Sequence record: NC_019503.1
Direction: 5' to 3' (one strand)
Source: Escherichia phage ime09
Length of the DNA: 64,000 nt
Made by a program: the position numbers and the translations under genes. Shown here piece by piece: positions 8,277 through 52,967 of the stretch (within the stretch, counting starts at the first letter, position 1; each line of letters begins with the position of its first letter). Under the pieces are notes generated by a model. It worked only from the letters and a program-made list of their open reading frames with translations. It had not been told where the DNA came from and searched no databases.

Positions 8277-8960
8277 TTATCGTTTTGTTGGAAGAGATAG
8301 AGGATCGCACTCTTCCTCTGACGGAGCATCTTCAAGACCCATAGCATATCGCAAAGCATACTTCATCATCAGGATGTCTTTCGCACAGTCATGAATAGAA
8401 TCATGCGCAACGAATCCATCTAAAGTTCCCTTTGGAAGAGGACACGTGGTCATATCGCGAACAAGCAGAAGTGCTTCAATTCTGGTACGAATATCACGTT
8501 GATTCCAGAATTTACATGGTTCTAACTTAAATGTGTCAAGTTCATTCTCAGAAACGCCGTTAAGACGCTGAATATCGCGAATAAGATCAACTAAAATTGG
8601 AAAATCAAACGACATTCCACGGCACCAGCCTTGAGATTTCCAAGGATCGATATTATGTGCATTGATGTAATCATTAAATTTTACAATACCATCGATAGTG
8701 CTTACATCTTCATCTGATGGCGCAATATTTTTTCGAGCTTCAGGAGACTGATTTTTCCACCATTCGATAGTGCTTTTAGTAAAAAGACGATGTCCCTTTT
8801 GGCTTTTTAAATCAAACTTGATTTTAATGCCGCGTGAAACTAATTCATCAAAGGATTCAACTACTTCTGGATTAGGGTCAAAGGCAATAACAGCCAAATC
8901 AATAACAGCTGCCTTTTCACCGCTTCCCATTGTTTCAAAATCTATAATAAAATCAAACAT
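8277..8960 (-). CDS. dexA: exonuclease A (DEDDh 3'-5' exonuclease)
   Basis: 227 aa; N-terminal DFET motif; matches T4 DexA size and position. Confidence 0.85.
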   Translation of the reverse strand: MFDFIIDFETMGSGEKAAVIDLAVIAFDPNPEVVESFDELVSRGIKIKFDLKSQKGHRLFTKSTIEWWKNQSPEARKNIAPSDEDVSTIDGIVKFNDYINAHNIDPWKSQGWCRGMSFDFPILVDLIRDIQRLNGVSENELDTFKLEPCKFWNQRDIRTRIEALLLVRDMTTCPLPKGTLDGFVAHDSIHDCAKDILMMKYALRYAMGLEDAPSEEECDPLSLPTKR

Positions 8961-9454
8961 TAAATTTTCCTCGCTAAATCGCGAATTTGACCTACAGTAT
9001 AATCTTGGATATAAACTTTATTAATGGGCTCATCAATAAATTTTGCCATAGATTCAATATCTTTTTGTATCTCTTCAAGACTGTATACTATCTTTAAAGC
9101 TTTTTCGCGAATAGTAACATTATCAGGTCCTGAATTTTCTTGAATGACAGCTTTAACATTTGCCATAAGAGATTTAAACTGATGCAAACTTAATTCAATC
9201 ATTAAAACCGCCTTATAAAGATGGCTAATTTCACCTAAAACATAATCACTGATTGTGACAGTTTTCACTTCACCACAAAAGAATTCTAACGCAATCAAAT
9301 CTCGTTCAATTTCTTCCAATTGAAGCATTAACTTGCCTGATTCAATTTTCACGTTTTTGCGATTTTTACTATAAGCTATTTCATAAATTTCGCTCACTTT
9401 ATCTTGAAGTAGATAAAACTGATCTTTAGTTATTTCCACGAATAGCTTCCTCAA
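8960..9454 (-). CDS. hypothetical protein (164 aa)
   Basis: co-directional ORF between dexA and dda. Confidence 0.5.
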   Translation of the reverse strand: MRKLFVEITKDQFYLLQDKVSEIYEIAYSKNRKNVKIESGKLMLQLEEIERDLIALEFFCGEVKTVTISDYVLGEISHLYKAVLMIELSLHQFKSLMANVKAVIQENSGPDNVTIREKALKIVYSLEEIQKDIESMAKFIDEPINKVYIQDYTVGQIRDLARKI

Positions 9455-9686
9455 ATTTAATCAGCAGCTTACAGACACTTTCATCTAATGTAATTACCGT
9501 ATCTGTATTACTATGATATGATTGTTTTTCAATTCGTTTAATTGCTAGTATAGTATCACTTATAAGATTAAGCTTATAAAGGAGCTCAGCTCCTGTTATC
9601 ATAACACTGAGGTTATCTTGCTTATCAGTATGCTTCTTTATACCATCTATTAGACGATTTAAATATTTTGAATTGATGTTAATCAT
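9426..9686 (-). CDS. hypothetical protein (86 aa)
   Basis: co-directional ORF. Confidence 0.45.
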   Translation of the reverse strand: MININSKYLNRLIDGIKKHTDKQDNLSVMITGAELLYKLNLISDTILAIKRIEKQSYHSNTDTVITLDESVCKLLIKFEEAIRGNN

Positions 9687-9692
9687 ATATCC

Positions 9693-11012
9693 TCACACAT
9701 AAAACACATCATAACGACCACGAGTGACACCAACATAAAGAAGCTGCTGAGCCAATTCAGCGTCTGCATAATGAATACAAGGCGTATAGATGAAAGCACG
9801 GTCTACAGACATACCCTGTGCTTTATGGAATGTTGATGCAGGAAGTGCTTTCACTTTACTAAACTGTGATTTAGCATCCCAAAAATCACTCCACGGAGCT
9901 TTTCCACCTTTATTCCAATTTTTATAAGTTTCTGCCGTTTTACCTAAAAATAAGTTAAACTTATACAGCTCTTCATCAGATGAAATTATTTTAATCTTTT
10001 CACGATAATATTCATCATCGCCGTAAGTTTCTACTGTTAAATCCCAATGACGAATTAGATATTCTCCAGAAACACCACGAGCTTTAACAAATGTTGATGT
10101 ATACTCTGCTTCTATAATACGAACTAATTGTCCGTTATTAAAAATAATTTCTGACACAGGCTTTCCATCAATTTTATATGTTTTAATTAATGGTTCCTGC
10201 ATTACAATAATTTCACCGACAATAAAATCTTTATCAGTTTCAAAAATCTTTTTGCGAATAATGCTGTTTAACTTGTCAACAGATTTATTCGTAAATGCCA
10301 TTACACGATTTTCAAACAAATCATCCAGTGATTTTACGATTGAAAAATAATTTACCATAAAATCGCGTAAAGCGGTATCACCAGTAAATCCACGTACTCC
10401 ATGTCCGTCAACAATTTTATCATAAATCCACTTACCATTACGAACATCAGTAGCTACATCAATAATAGGAGCATTACTGCGTTTAACTTCAGTGAGTTCA
10501 CACTGATAAAAATCTTTGTGCGTAAAGAATGGACTGATATAAGCAGTGTTTTCTCCTGGGTCAACAGGTCTAATTTGCTTATTATCGCCTATTCCAATTA
10601 TAGTACACCAAGGTGGAATAGTTGAAAGCAGAATTTTAAATAGCTTTCTATCATACATTGATACTTCGTCGCAGATTAATACTCTGCATTTAGCCAAATC
10701 CGGTACTTCTTTTTGCTCAAAAAGAACGTTTTCTTCATATGTTACTGGGTTAATTTTAAGAATACTGTGAATAGTACTCGCTTCTTTCCCTGACAGTTTT
10801 GAAAGAATCTTTTTAGCTGCATGAGTAGGAGCTGCTAAAATAATGCCAGTTTCGCCCGTAGATATTAAGGCTTCAATGATGAACTTAGTAAGAGTAGTCT
10901 TACCAGTACCGGCAGGTCCATTGATAGTTACATGATGTTTCTTTTCTTTGATAGCCCTCATAACGATGTTAAAGGCATTTTTCTGGCCTTCGGTCAAATC
11001 ATCAAATGTCAT
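9693..11012 (-). CDS. dda: Dda DNA helicase (SF1B)
   Basis: 439 aa; Walker A GPAGTGKTT; matches T4 Dda. Confidence 0.93.
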   Translation of the reverse strand: MTFDDLTEGQKNAFNIVMRAIKEKKHHVTINGPAGTGKTTLTKFIIEALISTGETGIILAAPTHAAKKILSKLSGKEASTIHSILKINPVTYEENVLFEQKEVPDLAKCRVLICDEVSMYDRKLFKILLSTIPPWCTIIGIGDNKQIRPVDPGENTAYISPFFTHKDFYQCELTEVKRSNAPIIDVATDVRNGKWIYDKIVDGHGVRGFTGDTALRDFMVNYFSIVKSLDDLFENRVMAFTNKSVDKLNSIIRKKIFETDKDFIVGEIIVMQEPLIKTYKIDGKPVSEIIFNNGQLVRIIEAEYTSTFVKARGVSGEYLIRHWDLTVETYGDDEYYREKIKIISSDEELYKFNLFLGKTAETYKNWNKGGKAPWSDFWDAKSQFSKVKALPASTFHKAQGMSVDRAFIYTPCIHYADAELAQQLLYVGVTRGRYDVFYV

Positions 11013-43923: not shown

Positions 43924-44244
43924 TTATAGCGTAATCCATTCTCGTACTGTCTGAGTTATTACACGTTCACGGGGCTCGACTAGTTCAACAGTCGGAACTG
44001 CATAATACCAGTCAGAATGATAAGAACCTGAGCGAGTTTCATTTACGGAAACATGTACATTGTGTTTTGGACTAAAATAAACACACTGACGATATTGGCA
44101 TTTACCATCTTGCACCCAGTCTTCTATTTCGATAGGTTTAAGATAATCCGAAAAATCAAAATCATAATTTTCTGAAAATGCATCATGGTCTTCGATAATT
44201 TCACTCAGAACTGCATCAACATCTAATTTATTTTCAATAGTCAT
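43924..44244 (-). CDS. hypothetical protein (106 aa)
   Basis: co-directional ORF. Confidence 0.5.
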   Translation of the reverse strand: MTIENKLDVDAVLSEIIEDHDAFSENYDFDFSDYLKPIEIEDWVQDGKCQYRQCVYFSPKHNVHVSVNETRSGSYHSDWYYAVPTVELVEPRERVITQTVREWITL

Positions 44245-44904: not shown

Positions 44905-45162
44905 TTATTCCTTAATTCCTAGTACTTGTTTAAAAGTCTCGTCGTAATCAAGACTTTGGCCCGTTTGTTCTTTATGTTTGTATATAATATCACTTACTTC
45001 TGATAGCATATTTTTATATGAACGAGTTAAAGCAGATTTAAGCACGCTATATCTATCAGGAAATTTACCATGTTCATTATAATAAGCTATTGCTAATTCA
45101 CGGACTGCCTTTTCAGCAGTCTCCATATATTCTTTACGCTTTGTCATTTTCTTCTCGGTCAA
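44905..45162 (-). CDS. hypothetical protein (85 aa)
   Basis: co-directional ORF. Confidence 0.45.
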
Positions 45163-45415
45163 ATCGGTGTTTACAACGACGACATTTATAGCGAAGATTA
45201 CTAGTCTGCCAATGAACTAATTGTACCTGTTCAGTACCGCATTCAGGACAATTAGGAACGTTTTTAGAAGCCCTTTCGCGACGTTCAACCATAGCCATAA
45301 TAGCATCCCATGCTGGAGGTTTAAAATCTAAATCGTCACAACCATGAATCTTTCCACGCATTTCTAAATCATCTTCTTCACCAGCCATAATAATTTTAAT
45401 TAGATGAAGCTGCAA
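45134..45415 (-). CDS. zinc-ribbon protein (93 aa)
   Basis: CPECG...CRRCKH. Confidence 0.5.
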
Positions 45416-45436
45416 TATCTTCTAATAAGCGCTTTT

Positions 45437-46366
45437 TCATTTCAATACCTCAATAGCATTACGTAAACCATTTGCTTTTGCATTAAGATCTTTTAACAAT
45501 TTGGTGTGTTCGGCAATCTGGGCTTCAACTTCAATCAAACGAGCATTGAGATATTCACGTTCTTCGCTCAAGTTATCAATCTTTTCTACTTTAGGCTCTT
45601 TTACAACTGTCTTATATGTATTAGGGTTCTTCAGTTTAATTAGAATGCGTGAACTGTATAACATTGAACCATTATCTTCGATTTCGTCATACATTTCTAC
45701 TACGTCCATGATTTTTAACATCATGCGAAGTTTATAAGACAACGAACGAATAGTTTTGTTGTGCTTATTAATTTCTCTAGAGTTCATGGTGCCGAGATTA
45801 CGTGAGTAATAATAAGGAACCTGGATATTAATTAACACTGATGAACCACCTGGCTTGTGTGTTACTTCATCAGCAATAACCCAATCCTTAACATGAACTG
45901 TATTTGTACGGTCATCACCCGCGGCAAACAGTTTGCGAGCATGCTTAAAAAGCATATTCACTTGGTCATTGAATTGACAAGCAAATTTATCAGCAAATTT
46001 AGTTTCAGGAATGGTAGATAACCAATCAGCCAAATGAGTCTTTTTAACATCGTTAACAATAGTAAATTCAACCAAATCAGTTATAGATGTCTCAGATTTA
46101 ATAAAGCTCGGCTTCATAAAGTTTTTAATGTTATCGCGAGCTACAGTAGAAGATAACATACGAGAACGTTTAAACCATTGAAGCAAATTGCCCAACGAAT
46201 GAGAATAAGCGTTTTGAGTATCTTTACAGATATGATTTTCCTGGCCAACATATTGAAGGAAATCACGAAGAATATTATTGATTACTGCTCTGTGTCCGAT
46301 CTGATAATTACGGTGTTTAGTAATAAGACTGTCAAAATAATCAATATAATGTTTACGAGTTTTCAT
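45437..46366 (-). CDS. coiled-coil-tailed protein A (309 aa)
   Basis: starts MKTRKHY; C-terminal about 50 aa heptad-like. Confidence 0.55.
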   Translation of the reverse strand: MKTRKHYIDYFDSLITKHRNYQIGHRAVINNILRDFLQYVGQENHICKDTQNAYSHSLGNLLQWFKRSRMLSSTVARDNIKNFMKPSFIKSETSITDLVEFTIVNDVKKTHLADWLSTIPETKFADKFACQFNDQVNMLFKHARKLFAAGDDRTNTVHVKDWVIADEVTHKPGGSSVLINIQVPYYYSRNLGTMNSREINKHNKTIRSLSYKLRMMLKIMDVVEMYDEIEDNGSMLYSSRILIKLKNPNTYKTVVKEPKVEKIDNLSEEREYLNARLIEVEAQIAEHTKLLKDLNAKANGLRNAIEVLK

Positions 46367-46418
46367 GTTCTTCTCACTTGGTTAATGGCTTATACTCCGA
46401 GCCATCCTTGGCTTTAAA

Positions 46419-47420
46419 TTACTTAATTAACTGTAAAGCTTGTTCCAAACGATCAAGGCGATTAACAGATTCTTCCCAAATCCTTTTAGCCTTCTCATAT
46501 TCTTTCTGCGCTTTATTAGAAATTTCTAGAACTTCTTTATAAGCTTTTTCTAGTGCAATAACTTCTGGACGAATTTCTACCGATTCAGGCGAATCATCAA
46601 GATTATCCATTAGTTCCTCAAGTGTAGTTTCTTCTTTAGGAGTATTCACAATTTCATCACATTTTTGTTGGTAAATTTCTTTATCAGTCGGTGAATAAGC
46701 ACATTTCACTTCACGAAGACTAACTACAATTTTGTATCCTTCCCAACCGCATATATTCTTAAAAGGATACGTATGAATATTTTCTACTGTTTCCATACAA
46801 AGTAATGCGGTTTCTAATTGACGAGTTATAGTGCTAGCAATTGAGAAAAATTTATTAATATTCCTTTGGTTAGTTTCTGGTGTAAAAAATCCATAATTCA
46901 CAAAAATAGATACTTTATTTTTATCAAGTTCATATTCTTTTATGATAATCATATCAGAAGCCAAAGGATGAATTTGACGATAATCGCCATAACATAATTT
47001 AGAAGCTGATTTTAGAATCTGTCCTTTGAAAAGCCTGAAATTACTAATCCAACGACGAGTAAAAATATTCTCAGGGTCTTCTTTATTATTAAGATGATAA
47101 GAATTAACATCACCGAACCAATTATATCCTACTACATCTTTGGTTCGTTTAATTTCTTTCCCAAAATTACCAAGAATATCTCGATTAACCAAATATGAAA
47201 GAAGACGAGACTCTTTAAAGGTTTTCTTGATAACATCTTTATCTACACGGCTAGAAATTTTACGAATTTCATGAATAAATTTAACAGAAGAAACAATACT
47301 TGCATCAACACTATTGAGCCATTGATTGATAATGGAAATAACGCTATTTTGGCCAAACATCGGTATAGCTTTATCATCAATAACGCTGTTGAATGATTTG
47401 ATATATTCGTTACGAGTCAT
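46419..47420 (-). CDS. coiled-coil-tailed protein B (about 333 aa)
   Basis: track ORF 46419..47471 trimmed to MTRNEYIKSF with GAGGAG RBS. Confidence 0.55.
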   Translation of the reverse strand: MTRNEYIKSFNSVIDDKAIPMFGQNSVISIINQWLNSVDASIVSSVKFIHEIRKISSRVDKDVIKKTFKESRLLSYLVNRDILGNFGKEIKRTKDVVGYNWFGDVNSYHLNNKEDPENIFTRRWISNFRLFKGQILKSASKLCYGDYRQIHPLASDMIIIKEYELDKNKVSIFVNYGFFTPETNQRNINKFFSIASTITRQLETALLCMETVENIHTYPFKNICGWEGYKIVVSLREVKCAYSPTDKEIYQQKCDEIVNTPKEETTLEELMDNLDDSPESVEIRPEVIALEKAYKEVLEISNKAQKEYEKAKRIWEESVNRLDRLEQALQLIK

Positions 47421-47448
47421 ATTAATCTCCTCAGTAGAAAGTAAGAAC

Positions 47449-47478
47449 ATTATACCACATCCTTGTGGCAAAGTAAAC
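47449..47478 (-). promoter_or_regulatory. early promoter, near-identical 30-mer to the one at 2430..2459
   Basis: attataccacatccttgtggcaaagtaaac; upstream of protein B. Confidence 0.55.
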
Positions 47479-48506
47479 TAGTTTAGTGCATTTAGTGCAT
47501 TGTTCAGTTTAGAACGTTGCTTCGTGAGATTTTTGACTTTTTCTTGAGCTTTTTCTAGCATCTTTTCAGCTTCTAACACCTCATTAGTTGCTTTAACGAG
47601 TTCATCATCTACTGCCTTTATAGACTTCTCAATCGCATCTGCATGCCATTTTTCAACAGGTTTAAGACTCGGATTTTCATCAGGAAGAAAATTCACTTTA
47701 TTGAATTTCCATGCATCCTTATTACCTGAACTATACATCCAAAATTTAGGATCGTTTGATGAGTAATTAGATAAATTTAAATTTAAGTTATCTTGCACTT
47801 CTTGCTTTTTCTCTTGTGTAACTTCGTCCTTTCTCAAAAATTCATATTTAAATGAAACGATCATATCAAGTTCATATGTTGTTGTGTCTAATTTAAATCG
47901 CTCAAAACGAGGTAAAATCTTAGACTGAACAGCGGCAACAACATCCATATACTTAAATGCTTCTGTCAACTGCGATTTAAGGCATTCGCAAATTGAAAGA
48001 GAATTTTTTGTATTAGGTTTAAAGCTAATTCGTGCAGTTCTGTTATTTTCTTTTAATGGTCTTACTTCCATCTGAAGAGTATAACCATCAAATTTCAGGT
48101 TCTTTAAGTTAATGTCAGAACCTTTTAATCGACTAGCCGTGGACAAAATTTGCTTTAATTGTTTACGGAATAGAGCAATAAATCTCCATTCAATACGATA
48201 ATGATTTGGATTGAAAAATCCAGATGATAAATCGACCTTACTTTGACCAACGCCTTGAACAAATAAAGGATTTTTATAATCAATAGTTTTACAGAAATCG
48301 GTGAGCTGCTCACGGGCCGTCATTTGTGTAATATATCCTGCTTTACTAAAATTACGCACCCATTCACTGCTATTCGTATACTTAAAGTGATGAATAACAC
48401 GATTAACTTTATCAGGGTCTAAATTATTTTCACACAAAAATGTCATAGCATCACGAGTATAGCTGGCATTACGAACCATATCTTCAATTTGAGAACGAGT
48501 TTTCAT
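47478..48506 (-). CDS. coiled-coil-tailed protein C (342 aa)
   Basis: starts MKTRSQ; first codons share DNA with protein A. Confidence 0.55.
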   Translation of the reverse strand: MKTRSQIEDMVRNASYTRDAMTFLCENNLDPDKVNRVIHHFKYTNSSEWVRNFSKAGYITQMTAREQLTDFCKTIDYKNPLFVQGVGQSKVDLSSGFFNPNHYRIEWRFIALFRKQLKQILSTASRLKGSDINLKNLKFDGYTLQMEVRPLKENNRTARISFKPNTKNSLSICECLKSQLTEAFKYMDVVAAVQSKILPRFERFKLDTTTYELDMIVSFKYEFLRKDEVTQEKKQEVQDNLNLNLSNYSSNDPKFWMYSSGNKDAWKFNKVNFLPDENPSLKPVEKWHADAIEKSIKAVDDELVKATNEVLEAEKMLEKAQEKVKNLTKQRSKLNNALNALN

Positions 48507-48514
48507 GGTGTTCC

Positions 48515-49405
48515 TTAAGATTTAAGTAAATCAACAATTTTAATTAATTTTTCACGCTCAGATTTAGCTTTACTACTCAGTCCAGATAGTCTGAAAATTT
48601 CATCATCATATTGTTGAATAGAAATATTCAGCTCTTCAATCTGTTTATTAAAATAATCAATTTGTTCAGAATGTTTTTCGTTACTACGAACTGGTACAGG
48701 TTTCGTAGGCAATGTAGTTGAACTGGATTCATCCGGGCGATAAATTAAAATACAACTTGAACCAATAGGGCATTTTGCTCCAGATGAATATTCTAATGTT
48801 CCAGCTTCTTTTAAAACTTCAAAAGCTAAACAGAGATGATGCCCCATATTAACATAATCTGTAGAGCGAGCTCTGATGTAATAATCATCGCCGCGAATAC
48901 TAAATTTAAAACATTTAAGGTCTTCTGTATTATTGGTCTTAAAAATCATTTGTTTATCTAGACCTTTAGCTAATCGAGCGCCCAATGCTAATAATCGGCG
49001 TTGATTTTCCCACAAATCCGCAATCATTTGATCGAATGATAATTTTGGCATCAGTCGACCATAAAGGTCATATCCTTTATTATAATTACGAAGAATTTCA
49101 CTCGCATTAATACGAGACAACGCTCCAATTTTATTAAGGGCTTTCATAATACGATTAGATAAACTCATTCCAGACCCATTTGTTCGCTGTAGATGTTTTT
49201 CTAATCCAAATCCAATATCAACTTTAAACTTATCTAAAATTTCTGCATGAACATCTCTGTCGATAACATTCAAATCCAAAGTTGAGTTAAATCTATGAAA
49301 AAATTTATCTGGCTCTGCACTGCGAAATACAGTCCATTCATTCATCATTTTTTTATTAACTAAAGATTTAATTACTGCATTGACATTATTAATTACTACT
49401 GACAT
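48515..49405 (-). CDS. coiled-coil-tailed protein D (about 296 aa)
   Basis: track ORF 48515..49441 trimmed to MSVVINNV with GAGGA RBS. Confidence 0.55.
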   Translation of the reverse strand: MSVVINNVNAVIKSLVNKKMMNEWTVFRSAEPDKFFHRFNSTLDLNVIDRDVHAEILDKFKVDIGFGLEKHLQRTNGSGMSLSNRIMKALNKIGALSRINASEILRNYNKGYDLYGRLMPKLSFDQMIADLWENQRRLLALGARLAKGLDKQMIFKTNNTEDLKCFKFSIRGDDYYIRARSTDYVNMGHHLCLAFEVLKEAGTLEYSSGAKCPIGSSCILIYRPDESSSTTLPTKPVPVRSNEKHSEQIDYFNKQIEELNISIQQYDDEIFRLSGLSSKAKSEREKLIKIVDLLKS

Positions 49406-49412
49406 ATTTTCC

Positions 49413-49820
49413 TCACTCAATTTCAATTTTACTAAATACACAGAATATGATTGAACAGACTACATAAGCACCACACACAGATTGAACTAATACCATCCCA
49501 AAGAACCAAACAATATTATCAAACAGTGTCTGTTTTACGTCGAAAGGACGTAAACTTACAGTAATATTATCACCTTTTTCTATTGAAGAATACATCTCTG
49601 GGGAAATATATTCACTAAATCTATAACCGTCTTTGAGTTCATATACGGCAATAAACGATAAACTAGACCCTTTTCCTTGTGTTCCTGTAATGGTATTAAC
49701 TACAGTAACATTATAATCTTTATAATGCATATAATCATTAATTGCGTAATAACCGTATGCAACTACTACACATAAACAACATATCAATAAATTCAATCTT
49801 TTAATTATCAACTGTTTCAT
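49413..49820 (-). CDS. membrane protein (135 aa)
   Basis: N-terminal and C-terminal hydrophobic helices. Confidence 0.5.
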   Translation of the reverse strand: MKQLIIKRLNLLICCLCVVVAYGYYAINDYMHYKDYNVTVVNTITGTQGKGSSLSFIAVYELKDGYRFSEYISPEMYSSIEKGDNITVSLRPFDVKQTLFDNIVWFFGMVLVQSVCGAYVVCSIIFCVFSKIEIE

Positions 49821-49875
49821 AATAATCTCAATTAAAAGGGCTTAGAACCATTATACCATCCTTGGTATAAAGCGG

Positions 49876-50403
49876 TTATGCGAGTACCGTCTTTAACCGT
49901 TCTTCAAACTTCCGAAGAGTATTTTGGCGTTCAGCTCTTTGCTTTTTGTAAGTTTCAATACGCTCTGAAATGAGAGTGTATCGTTCATTTACTGATTCTT
50001 TCATAAAATCAGGAATTTCACGAGAAGCTTTAATCTCGTCAAATTTATCAATAACAGCTTGCTCTTCAGCAATTAAGTTATCATACATTAAAATATCTTT
50101 CTTGATGAACTCAATATCTTCTTGAGTTACACGAGATAATTTAGATGCTTTATCCTTTTTGTACTGTTCGTTAGTATCACGAGACCAGTGTAATGTACGA
50201 TTTTTATTCGTATTTTTGTAAATTTCTACAATACCAATCTCATCAATAATAACGATCCAATTCCAACGGGATTTGTAAATTTGTCCTCCATCAACAGTGA
50301 TTTCACCTCCGATTGAGATGTCGTTAAAGAACTTGCTTTGTGCTTCAGATTTAAATTTACCATCGTTGTAATTTACCAAGTTGAAAATATCTTTAGCGTT
50401 CAT
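49876..50403 (-). CDS. hypothetical protein with C-terminal coiled coil (175 aa)
   Basis: co-directional ORF. Confidence 0.5.
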   Translation of the reverse strand: MNAKDIFNLVNYNDGKFKSEAQSKFFNDISIGGEITVDGGQIYKSRWNWIVIIDEIGIVEIYKNTNKNRTLHWSRDTNEQYKKDKASKLSRVTQEDIEFIKKDILMYDNLIAEEQAVIDKFDEIKASREIPDFMKESVNERYTLISERIETYKKQRAERQNTLRKFEERLKTVLA

Positions 50404-50407
50404 TTTC

Positions 50408-50462
50408 TGTTCCTCCGTAGTTGATAGTTGTATAGTACCACAGAGGAACAGTCTTGTAAACC
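50408..50462. repeat. repeated intergenic promoter cassette, partial copy 3
   Basis: shares gttgatagttgtatagtacca ... gtaaac core. Confidence 0.5.
50432..50461 (-). promoter_or_regulatory. early promoter GTTTAC-N18-TACTAT inside repeated cassette
   Basis: upstream of 49876..50403. Confidence 0.55.
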
Positions 50463-50463
50463 A

Positions 50464-50867: not shown

Positions 50868-51848
50868 TTATTTCAGAAGAGTAACCTCAGCGATTTCTTC
50901 CCAACCGTTTTTATCGGTCATAATAAAGTCAGCAAGATAAAGAGCAGTACGCAGTGAAACATTGCGTAAACGATTAACATTAACTTTCATCCATGATAAT
51001 GCTTTATAAGTTTCTTCATCAGAAAGACCGCGCTTTTGCATCATGTCAGTTGAAAGAATAACATCTTCAACCCTGACCATAATTTCTTCATTAGTGTGAA
51101 CACCCAAATCCAAATAAACCGAGCGGGACACTAATGCTTGTAAATGTGGAGCAAGTTTAGTACCACGGTCTAATTCGCGGTCAATGTCAACGTTTGTGAT
51201 AAAAACAATCGTTCCTTTAAATTCAAACTCACGGTCAATGCCTTTTTCTTCTAAGTAAGAAGATGCAGTGCTCCAGCAGACTTTACGGGTCTCTCCGGTG
51301 TCCAGAGCGGCTTTTAGAAGATTAAGAATGTCCATATCAGAGAAAACATCCACATCATCAATCAAAAGGACAGAATTCTCTTCACGATTATTCCAAAGCT
51401 GCTCATAAAGACCAATACCAGAGATTTTACCATTAATGCTTTTATATTCAATGTATCCAATATCATTTGCTTTATTTAAAGCTTTATCTAAAGAATACGT
51501 TTTACCAATACCTGCTGCGCCAGAGATAATCAATGAACGAATATTTCCGTTAATAATACCATTCGTCATCATTCCCATAACATTAAATCTTTTATTAATG
51601 CGGGTTTTCATATCTTCATACGATTCTTTAACTTCTTCAACTTTTACACCATCATATGAAATATCTGATTTGTAAACCCAAACACCGCGACGTTTACCGT
51701 CAATTTCAACAAAAACTTTACCATCTCCTTGTGCATCTACCGGAGCATTATCTGGGAACCATTCGCCTAAGAGCTCAAAAGTTCCAGAGATTTCTTTACC
51801 GAAGTAGATACCCTTATTGATAGTTACAGTTTTCATTTTATTCTCCAA
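50868..51848 (-). CDS. AAA+ ATPase (326 aa)
   Basis: Walker A GAAGIGKT, Walker B LLIDDVD; about 100-aa N-terminal extra domain. Confidence 0.6.
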   Translation of the reverse strand: MENKMKTVTINKGIYFGKEISGTFELLGEWFPDNAPVDAQGDGKVFVEIDGKRRGVWVYKSDISYDGVKVEEVKESYEDMKTRINKRFNVMGMMTNGIINGNIRSLIISGAAGIGKTYSLDKALNKANDIGYIEYKSINGKISGIGLYEQLWNNREENSVLLIDDVDVFSDMDILNLLKAALDTGETRKVCWSTASSYLEEKGIDREFEFKGTIVFITNVDIDRELDRGTKLAPHLQALVSRSVYLDLGVHTNEEIMVRVEDVILSTDMMQKRGLSDEETYKALSWMKVNVNRLRNVSLRTALYLADFIMTDKNGWEEIAEVTLLK

Positions 51849-51930: not shown

Positions 51931-51952
51931 AAAGGGAGCCCGAAGGCTCCCT
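51931..51952 (-). terminator. rho-independent terminator after NTase-fold gene
   Basis: aaagggagcccgaaggctccct. Confidence 0.55.
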
Positions 51953-51953
51953 A

Positions 51954-52967
51954 TCATTTATAATAACTTCGGTGGTTTTCAAGATAAACCCTCTCAAGGA
52001 AGTCATCCCAAAAACCCATGTCTACTTTTTGCTGCATACCGTTCTTAGAAGCTTCAATAGATGCTGCTTCTACTTGATCGACCACATCTTCCAAAAACTC
52101 TTGAACAGTTTTAAATGGGTGTTTACCCAGCTTCACGTCGAGAATAAATGGAGCGTCTTGAAGTGGATAGACTAAGTCACCAGTTTTGTAAATTTCCAAT
52201 AGTTGGAGTCCACCACGACAAGCATGACTCAGTGCTTTCCAGTCAATGCCCTCATTCGCTTCAGCCTTACGAGCACGTTCACCGTATTCGGCATCAAGTT
52301 TATTCAAAGACTGCTTAAGCTCAATAAGAGAAAGTGTTGTCTGATATTTACGACCCAACACAGTGTAGAACGTTTGTGGACCGGTTTTCTCATGATTATG
52401 GAATACCCATTCACAAAACTCGTTTTCAGGGAGTCGGTGTTTGATATCTTCTACCTTAGTTCGGCGTAAACGATCTGGAATTCCCTCTTGGTAATCAACC
52501 CACTGGTCAGGGATTTGATTAACTACTTTCAATACATCACGTAATGCGGCCAAACGAGAACCCTTGACACCGTATTTAGAAGCTTGCTTGCGAACATATC
52601 CTAAATAGGATTTCATGTTAGTCGTATAAAAACGAGAACGATTGTCTTGAATAAACTTCCATACATCAGGCAAATCAGATTTAACTACCAGTTCAGGTGG
52701 AGTGTGGAGCATATCCAATGCTACGGTTTCACCATCTGCTGCTAATTTAAAGAAATACTTAAGACTGTATAGTTCATGGTCAATATCATCTTTGGTGTTT
52801 TTAGATGATGTGTTGTTAGTGTTTTTACTCATATGCTCTTTAACATTTCCAATAAGAATATCGCGAGCAGGAGGAACAAAGATTTCTTTAAAATCTACAT
52901 CAGATTCTGGAGTAGAAGTTCCATAAAGATGACTACCAAAATAGCTTTTCATTACTGTTTTCATCAT
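51954..52967 (-). CDS. nucleotidyltransferase-fold protein (337 aa)
   Basis: N-terminal GS-x-YGT-x5-SDVDF pattern typical of Pol-beta-superfamily minimal NTases. Confidence 0.5.
   Translation of the reverse strand: MMKTVMKSYFGSHLYGTSTPESDVDFKEIFVPPARDILIGNVKEHMSKNTNNTSSKNTKDDIDHELYSLKYFFKLAADGETVALDMLHTPPELVVKSDLPDVWKFIQDNRSRFYTTNMKSYLGYVRKQASKYGVKGSRLAALRDVLKVVNQIPDQWVDYQEGIPDRLRRTKVEDIKHRLPENEFCEWVFHNHEKTGPQTFYTVLGRKYQTTLSLIELKQSLNKLDAEYGERARKAEANEGIDWKALSHACRGGLQLLEIYKTGDLVYPLQDAPFILDVKLGKHPFKTVQEFLEDVVDQVEAASIEASKNGMQQKVDMGFWDDFLERVYLENHRSYYK

Follow-up and report, generated by a model that had tools for sequence, protein, structure and literature searches.

In Escherichia phage ime09, a block of minus-strand genes comprises the orthologs of phage T4 nrdC.3, nrdC.4, nrdC.5, nrdC.6 and nrdC.8, whose products we refer to here as A, B, C, D and E, respectively. 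Our analysis of a 64,000-nucleotide stretch of this genome (NC_019503.1; the window) leads to the conclusion that A, B, C and D are best explained as tandem paralogs of one superfamily, restricted to T4-like phages (Straboviridae), whereas E is a separate conserved gene that has only a helical tail and its position in the block in common with A-D, without detectable ancestry. It also appears probable that A-D are early-expressed and non-enzymatic, that C blocks the bacterial Dsr1 system and that the others have been retargeted. A first-pass annotation, made from the sequence alone, had described all five genes as a family that arose by ancient duplication followed by strong divergence. For A-D this view is supported by sequence bridges, predicted architecture and structural neighbours; E is undetectable as a member.

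Sequence relatedness and predicted structures of nrdC.3 to nrdC.6

The relationship between A and B is seen directly. The two align in BLASTP with 27% identity over 231 residues (E = 4e-8), the only pair linked in this way, and both are found in phrog_1435 of PHROGs. For the remaining pairs, family alignments assembled from database homologs and 16 further phage loci were compared profile to profile with hhalign. At full length, A and B matched with an E-value of 5e-14 (98% probability), B and C with 2e-4 over 235 collinear columns, A and D with 0.002, A and C with 0.009, and C and D with 0.013. The 20 reversed-profile comparisons that served as the null all gave E-values of at least 0.095. 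With the tails cut, the bodies alone still matched at 2.4e-14 for A-B, 1.2e-4 for B-C and 0.0057 for C-D, against body-only nulls of at least 0.13. Because these three matches persist without the tails, the signal is not one of coiled-coil composition. The first hhalign match between A and C (96% probability, in an odd register) was an artefact of a chimeric open reading frame (ORF), P0119, placed in family A, and was gone after its removal.

Landmarks common to the alignments of A-D are a helix with K.G.L.R..A.E.L..F.K, a helix ending [AS][AS][RK]L..G.D, a strand FK.N and a helix with M[DE].V, followed by the tail. The A/B/C alignment retains only T3, R4, F71, A124 and M187 as invariant residues; T3 and R4 belong to the M(K)TR start that had been noticed in three of the proteins (MKTR in A, MTRN in B, MKTR in C). 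Likewise confirmed, A and C share their first 12 coding bases, and they share ATGAAAACTCGT, part of a 19-nt repeat of 89% identity. A merged A/B/C profile run against 1.84 billion representative proteins returned 18 hits only, and the family is therefore narrow and phage-restricted. No additional paralog was found elsewhere in the window, the nrdC.7 ortholog matched none of the family hidden Markov models (HMMs), and KP1_68 and IME523 gp088, which are neighbours of distant homologs, are not family members. Sequence-profile searches of the PDB gave nothing credible, and no solved structure or cellular homolog was found for the family.

Proteins of other phages bridge the individual families. 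P0232, from Klebsiella F48-type phages, matched both B (3.8e-7) and C (4.3e-8) at full length. P0239 matched C (6.6e-6) and also the D-family HMM, the latter with 14.5 bits in a single alignment that is full-length, collinear and has the core motif at its centre. In gp085 of Enterobacter phage IME523, the body matched B (0.0025) and the tail matched the tails of D (1.1e-6) and C (3.7e-4); that one tail matches both D and C indicates that the tails of A-D are homologous. All of these family tails end in a common motif, L..A[IL]..LK. The Pfam model DUF7235 (PF23882) matched C over residues 1-342 with 419.2 bits (E = 1.4e-125; gathering score 30 bits) and matched none of A, B, D and E at E <= 0.1, making these remote paralogs at best.

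AlphaFold2 models were obtained for C, on the merged A/B/C alignment, and for D, with a mean predicted local distance difference test (pLDDT) score of 69.9 and 76.8, respectively. The order of elements in the two models is alike, namely a helical bundle, a helix pair, a hairpin, a helix, a second hairpin, a disordered linker and a long helix, and is in register with the hhalign alignments. In Foldseek searches of BFVD the models share five hits (probability 1.00, E = 1e-7 to 2.5e-4), all of them uncharacterized proteins of distant T4-like phages, and the matches of C and D extend to T4-like phages of Acinetobacter, Pectobacterium, Erwinia, Yersinia and Serratia. The proteins of the superfamily would thus be built of four parts: a variable N-terminal helical bundle; a predicted conserved alpha/beta core formed by a helix pair carrying [AS][AS][RK]L..G.D, a beta-hairpin, a helix carrying M[DE].V and a second beta-hairpin; a putatively disordered linker; and a likely heptad-repeat helix of 45-58 residues ending L..A[IL]..LK. 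The alpha/beta core of the C model also gave weak Foldseek matches to siphovirus 'tail completion protein' models (BFVD ranks 24-49, E ~0.03-0.06, probability 0.3-0.85), which may be due to chance.

We considered whether only A and B could be true paralogs, with C and D as unrelated genes, and with similar size and tails produced by convergence or by an AT-rich, K/E/N-rich composition. Pfam distributes the proteins over three separate families (PF26897, PF23882 and PF26899), PHROGs keeps A and B, C, and D in phrog_1435, phrog_2351 and phrog_2257, respectively (all of unassigned function), direct BLASTP links are confined to A and B, and the hhalign probabilities of the links to D are low (3-14%). 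This explanation nevertheless seems very unlikely to us. The B-C and C-D body-only comparisons beat every reversed null, independent bridging sequences match two families each, and the secondary-structure order of the C and D models is identical, with Foldseek neighbours in common. Moreover, the six highest-scoring heptad tails among 88 in the window are those of these genes and one other, so that no genome-wide compositional effect is at work. The links to D agree across five independent lines, which are the body profiles, P0239, the gp085 tail, the secondary-structure order and the Foldseek neighbours. Common descent of all four proteins therefore remains the reading that we prefer.

C-terminal tails and the separate standing of nrdC.8

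To assess the tails, the final 60 residues of each of the 88 gene-like ORFs of the window were given a simple heptad score. Those of A-E took ranks 1, 2, 4, 5 and 6, and the Rad50-like gp46, our positive control, came first when heptads were scored anywhere in the protein. Each tail was also compared with 2,000 residue shuffles of itself, giving p = 0.0015-0.0175 for the heptad score and p = 0-0.011 for a 3.5-residue hydrophobic periodicity. On these scores, and on the helices modelled for C and D, all five tails count as coiled-coil regions, taken as at least four heptads of a/d hydrophobic periodicity within a proline-free predicted helix. The first-pass annotation had been correct in seeing heptad-like tails in all five proteins, and partly so in calling them rich in E, K, L, A and N: in A, B and C these residues make up 0.57-0.67 of the tail and 0.33-0.37 of the body, whereas the enrichment is weak in D and E (0.43-0.45 versus 0.36). 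In the C model, a helix spanning residues 285-341 (pLDDT 84-92) follows a disordered linker of about 60 residues (226-284); in the D model, helices 242-272 and 278-295 (pLDDT ~82-89) also follow a disordered linker. No part of the D family is better conserved across genera than the tail, with 60-71% identity as compared to 30-46% for the body.

A deletion affects this part of the protein in T4. The nrdC.6 of NC_000866 (10067-10894 of the T4 locus compared; corresponding to ~48515-48640 of the window) lacks 1 nt, reading GAGCTG-ATATT where the window has GAGCTGAATATT, and the resulting frameshift cuts the coiled-coil tail short by ~35 residues. In the +1 frame the complete tail can still be read, and the DNA around is ~98% identical. 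T4, or the T4 record, therefore has a natural tail-less NrdC.6.

The tail is what E has in common with A-D. E has a small beta-rich N-terminal domain, followed by ~95 helical residues. In full-length and body-only hhalign comparisons with A-D it gave E-values of 0.03-0.8, within the range of the nulls (0.095-0.65), and no nrdC.8-like proteins were retrieved by the A/B/C profile among the 1.84 billion proteins. It is also highly conserved, with at least 99% identity in 401 phage records, 67-83% identity across genera and a ratio of nonsynonymous to synonymous substitution rates (dN/dS) of at most 0.05. Could E still be a truncated member of one diversified family of five, in which only the end of the body and the tail survive? 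Its C-terminal heptad-periodic helix, its co-directional and adjacent position, the order E-D-C-B(-A), which is kept in four genera, and a tail-only D-E comparison with E = 0.0075 (over 12 columns only) speak in favour of it. Yet with every full-length and body-only comparison inside the null range, no retrieval by the profile search, a rate of evolution unlike that of A-D, and a placement apart in both PHROGs and Pfam, we judge this idea to be highly improbable. We thus treat E as a gene of its own and restrict the superfamily to A-D.

Function of the cluster

Functional information comes from T4. ECOR17 no longer supported plating of an evolved T4 clone from which a block of accessory genes was missing, and T4 nrdC.5 expressed from a plasmid restored plating of the deletion phage on cells carrying Dsr1 (Srikant, Guegler and Laub, eLife 2022; PMC9391042). 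Dsr1 is a SIR2-domain NADase with a sensor domain, common with Avs7, that recognises the phage major capsid protein (PMC13581612). C is 96% identical to T4 NrdC.5 over 100% of the length, in the same position and order. Given this identity and the rescue seen with the T4 protein, the cluster is best read as the tandem expansion of a non-enzymatic anti-defence binder. The guess that the locus holds anti-defence genes was therefore right for at least one member, as the T4 ortholog of C counteracts Dsr1. Like T4 NrdC.5, C is an early gene with a full-length Pfam match to DUF7235 and an equal genomic slot; A, B and D share the proposed architecture of T4 NrdC.5 as remote paralogs but miss the DUF7235 model. 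Paralogy, domain architecture and mechanism are undescribed in the T4 NrdC.5 paper (PMC9391042).

A second anti-defence factor is encoded close by. A 2026 study reported that the OLD defence nuclease is inhibited by Gp49.2 of T6 and that OLD escapers carry an amplified 49.1-nrdC.1 segment (PMC13096335). The window carries a gene 49.2 ortholog (43924-44244, minus strand) that is 95% identical to that of T4 and lies ~1.2 kb from the cluster. With OLD inhibition by 49.2 and nrdC.5 nearby, this stretch behaves as an anti-defence island.

Searches of Pfam, NCBIfam, PADLOC and the PDB returned no enzyme matches. The sole match to a PADLOC defence model was that of the B tail to a coiled region of BrxC (14 bits, E = 0.0017), the other proteins having none. 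None of the five invariant A/B/C columns is of a catalytic type, in agreement with the first-pass annotation, which had recognised no catalytic motif; these columns, together with the lack of an enzyme-family match, favour a stoichiometric binder. The SAM-like N-terminal domain found in tyrosine recombinases was matched below threshold by residues 30-86 of A (window ~46278-46109), in Pfam with E = 0.059 and in the XerD-type NCBIfam model with E = 0.0014 and 18 bits, where the cut-off is 279; these matches probably reflect a generic helical similarity.

We propose the following sequence of events. As the ortholog of T4 NrdC.5, C would block the Dsr1 abortive-infection system of the host, an activity shown genetically for T4 only. 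Its globular body may bind the host immune protein stoichiometrically, before the capsid protein appears, and the heptad tail may oligomerise the inhibitor, contributing avidity or assembly. Duplication followed by divergence of the bodies would then have aimed A, B and D at other immune proteins or variants. Possibly, though we advance this only tentatively, NrdC.3, NrdC.4 and NrdC.6 are unrecognised inhibitors of other immune systems, with the tail as a homo- or hetero-oligomeric assembly module and the body as a rapidly retargetable specificity module, such that chimeras and allele exchange across genera re-arm the phage.

The paralogs might instead cover allelic variants of one sensor class (that of Dsr1 and Avs7, which senses the major capsid protein) or work jointly, their tails linking them into a hetero-oligomer. 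The homology of the A-D tails and their common end motif would fit such an arrangement, as would a gene order kept as a block, and the Dsr1 sensor domain is found in many Avs7 and other defence proteins, which would provide many related targets (PMC13581612). We consider it unlikely, since NrdC.5 from a plasmid sufficed alone for rescue, the bodies are more than 75% different in sequence and some phages have one to three members only.

It also seems conceivable, if rather doubtful, that the proteins have a non-defence role, as adaptors or scaffolds in nucleotide metabolism, replication or transcription, with the rescue from Dsr1 being indirect, for example through NAD or nucleotide pools or the time at which capsid protein is made. 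The genes nrdC, nrdD and nrdG are nearby, the mechanism of NrdC.5 is unpublished, selection is purifying overall, and the polar core and tail of the D family are strongly conserved, suggesting a conserved and possibly phage-encoded partner. On the other hand, the phage does not need these genes on laboratory hosts, evolved T4 clones have lost them, and a phenotype is seen on the Dsr1 host only; copy number differs between genera; divergence is far faster than in the surrounding nrd genes; an enzyme or nucleotide-binding signature was searched for and none was found; and many of the 'nrdC.x' names are positional only.

An expansion of anti-defence binders is thus the explanation that we favour, and several points weigh against it. 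Functional data among A-D are confined to NrdC.5, and no paper was found in the literature on its mechanism (direct binding or other) or on a renaming of the gene. The links to D are weak, with sequence scores that are low individually and models of moderate confidence, and TM-scores of the C and D models to their shared neighbours are only 0.3-0.5, at a pLDDT of 70-77. The D family has many invariant polar residues (NYNKGYDLYGR, NQRR, DKQ and H190), which could point to a conserved site for a ligand or partner and not to a binding surface that varies. Oligomerisation through a coiled coil is suggested by the periodicity of the tails only. Finally, gene-wide dN/dS is below 1, which makes an arms race no more than a possibility.

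Among known systems, DSAD1 of SPbeta-like Bacillus phages provides a functional analogy, being described in PMC10973363 and PMC11087589 as a phage protein that binds and neutralises the SIR2-domain NADase DSR2. It differs in its target (DSR2, not Dsr1) and in coming from another phage group; no sequence or structural relation turned up in general searches, none of which was aimed at DSAD1 relatedness. The T-even phages have single-gene anti-defence factors in Gp49.2 (anti-OLD), TifA (anti-ToxN), Dmd (anti-RnlA), AdfA (anti-DarT) and IPI (anti-GmrSD). Like the products of nrdC.3-.6, these are small to medium in size, early or injected, dispensable in the laboratory and encoded in hyperplastic regions. 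Each of them neutralises a single host system. They show no relationship in sequence, are for the most part far smaller and occur as single copies, whereas nrdC.3-.6 represent a four-fold tandem expansion of a two-module protein of ~300 residues.

Evolution and genomic setting

A-D have diverged much faster than their neighbours. Identity across genera is 23-28% for C, 34-48% for D and 39-50% for B, as compared to 66-92% (mostly at least 76%) for gp49, nrdC, nrdC.10 and nrdC.11. Among close relatives, dN/dS is 0.12-0.33 for A, 0.15-0.21 for B, 0.09-0.16 for C and 0.03-0.13 for D, and ~0.02 for gp49 and nrdC. A-D are under relaxed constraint and evolve fast, with purifying selection gene-wide. 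The description of the family as 'diversifying' is accordingly apt as regards rate; positive selection is unproven at a gene-wide dN/dS of 0.03-0.33. The nrdC.3 of the window is 61% identical to that of T4 and 75% identical to that of RB69, a phage of a different genus, although around it nrdC.1 and nrdC.4 are 96-100% and nrdC.2 is 87% identical to T4. This pattern, with near-identical flanks and RB69 closer than T4, indicates local replacement of the allele by recombination (45134-46366).

Copy number varies as well. Tequatroviruses have all of A-D, RB69 is without nrdC.4, and Dhaka- and Gapriverviruses are without nrdC.3. In IME523 the corresponding slot, between nrdC.10/.11 and nrdC/pin/gene 49, holds one member only, and one member was detected there in KP1 too; the superfamily reaches, in addition, the Kanagawa-, Jiaoda- and Marfavirus-type phages examined.

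Several ORFs depart from the standard layout. P0119 is a chimera that joins NrdC.5 residues 147-275 to NrdC.3 residues 136-309, that is, a C body to an A tail; its junction lies at a short common motif (KFNKVN / QFNDQVN), implying deletion of the C tail, the whole of nrdC.4 and the N-terminus of nrdC.3. P0234 (173 residues) has an unrelated N-terminal domain of 118 residues, which had no tblastn match in 50,697 phage records, followed by a tail identical to that of NrdC.5, AIEKSIKAVDDEL...NALNALN (window 47481-47630 region). Both chimeras support a modular design of body and tail. In P0121, the NrdC.6 of Shigella phage Sf25 (378 residues), a stretch of ~82 residues covering the last hairpin, the linker and the start of the tail is duplicated internally in tandem. 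In the 169,650-bp phage IMGVR_UViG_2974742932, a frameshift splits nrdC.4 (8950-9982 of the locus examined) into ORFs of 193 and 158 residues, so that one paralog is decaying while the rest of the cluster is intact.

The window is a Tequatrovirus (T4-like) genome, and the 4,967-bp region was matched in 739 phage records with a top identity of 97.3%. Ortholog assignments for A-E rest on synteny and identity with T4 and Shigella phage Shfl2, and synteny with T4 bears out the location, between nrdC and mobD/rI, that had been proposed. The five ORFs stand on the minus strand as first called (Table 1). Longer ORFs starting at TTG or GTG are also possible for B and D, and strong Shine-Dalgarno sequences lie directly 5' of the ATG chosen in the first-pass annotation (GAGGAG for B, GAGTGAGGA for D).

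Table 1. Coordinates of the genes, promoter-like matches and C-terminal tails in the window
Feature	Position	Strand	Length	Remarks
A, nrdC.3 ortholog	45437..46366	-	309 aa	proposed family member (body + tail); phrog_1435 full length
B, nrdC.4 ortholog	46419..47420	-	333 aa	proposed family member; phrog_1435; precomputed Pfam PF26897
C, nrdC.5 ortholog	47478..48506	-	342 aa	DUF7235/PF23882
D, nrdC.6 ortholog	48515..49405	-	296 aa	most divergent proposed family member; precomputed Pfam PF26899
nrdC.7 ortholog	49413..49820	-	135 aa	predicted membrane protein between D and E; phrog_2547; non-member
E, nrdC.8 ortholog	49876..50403	-	175 aa	phrog_2274; homology to A-D undetected
Sigma-70/T4-early-like promoter match	47449..47477	-		TTTACT-17-TATAAT with TG; C-B spacer; consensus match only
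Promoter-like match	50432..50460	-		TTTACA-17-TACTAT with TG; upstream of E; consensus match only
Tail of A, aa 262-309	45440..45583	-		heptad-periodic amphipathic helix, end LRNAIEVLK; shuffle p = 0.017 and 0.01
Tail of B, aa 283-333	46422..46574	-		end LEQALQLIK; shuffle p = 0.0175 and 0
Tail of C, aa 285-342	47481..47654	-		single modelled 57-residue helix; shuffle p = 0.0025 and 0.0015
Tail of D, aa 243-296	48518..48679	-		two helices, break at SGLSS
Tail of E, aa 120-175	49879..50046	-		heptad-periodic, break at REIPDF; shuffle p = 0.01 and 0.011

Downstream of the cluster are nrdC.2, nrdC.1, nrdC, 49.2, pin and gene 49. Upstream are nrdC.9 (DUF7203), nrdC.10, a putative P-loop nucleoside triphosphatase (50868-51848, minus strand) with weak AAA/STAND-type P-loop matches, all under the Pfam thresholds, and nrdC.11 (51954-52967, minus strand), a nucleotidyltransferase of the RlaP family (PF10127). 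A strong bidirectional hairpin terminator separates the last two genes at 51933-51952. The Shine-Dalgarno regions of E and B contain GGAG (leaders 50404-50463 and 47421-47477), and the GGAG of nrdC.8 has been mapped in T4 as a moderately cleaved site of the RegB endoribonuclease (PMC1702504); the E leader also holds an inverted repeat (50407-50421 / 50437-50451). Some database names in this region mislead. In the T6 record AP018814.1 (43000-53500), names were evidently transferred to the nrdC.x genes in error, such as 'tail sheath protein' for nrdC.8, 'tail sheath stabilizer' for nrdC.5 and 'HNH homing endonuclease' for nrdC.9, and many other records label the whole nrdC.x block 'thioredoxin'.

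The relation to the T4 nrdC.x genes, which the first-pass annotation had left undecided, is clear: all five are orthologs of T4 nrdC.3,.4,.5,.6 and.8, of which only nrdC.5 is partly characterised. The novelty of the cluster is lowered by this. C is the ortholog of a partly characterised gene, and the T4 counterparts of A, B, D and E are ORFs that have long been known but are uncharacterised. The point that seems to be unrecorded is that nrdC.3-.6 constitute one two-module superfamily, Straboviridae-wide and tandem-expanded in the T-even group; Pfam and PHROGs hold A and B, C, and D as three unrelated families, which are joined here into one.

Phage counter-defence proteins have mostly been discovered singly, by genetics. 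The present work yields testable candidates, not a new principle: three 'hypothetical proteins' become concrete anti-defence candidates, and a boundary between body and tail domains is defined for mechanistic experiments. Relatives of A, B and D occupy the matching slot as single copies in distant T4-like phages, and hundreds of coliphages of the therapeutic type carry A, B and D. The pay-off would be that the host range of T-even phages could be predicted better for strains with sirtuin-type and other defences.

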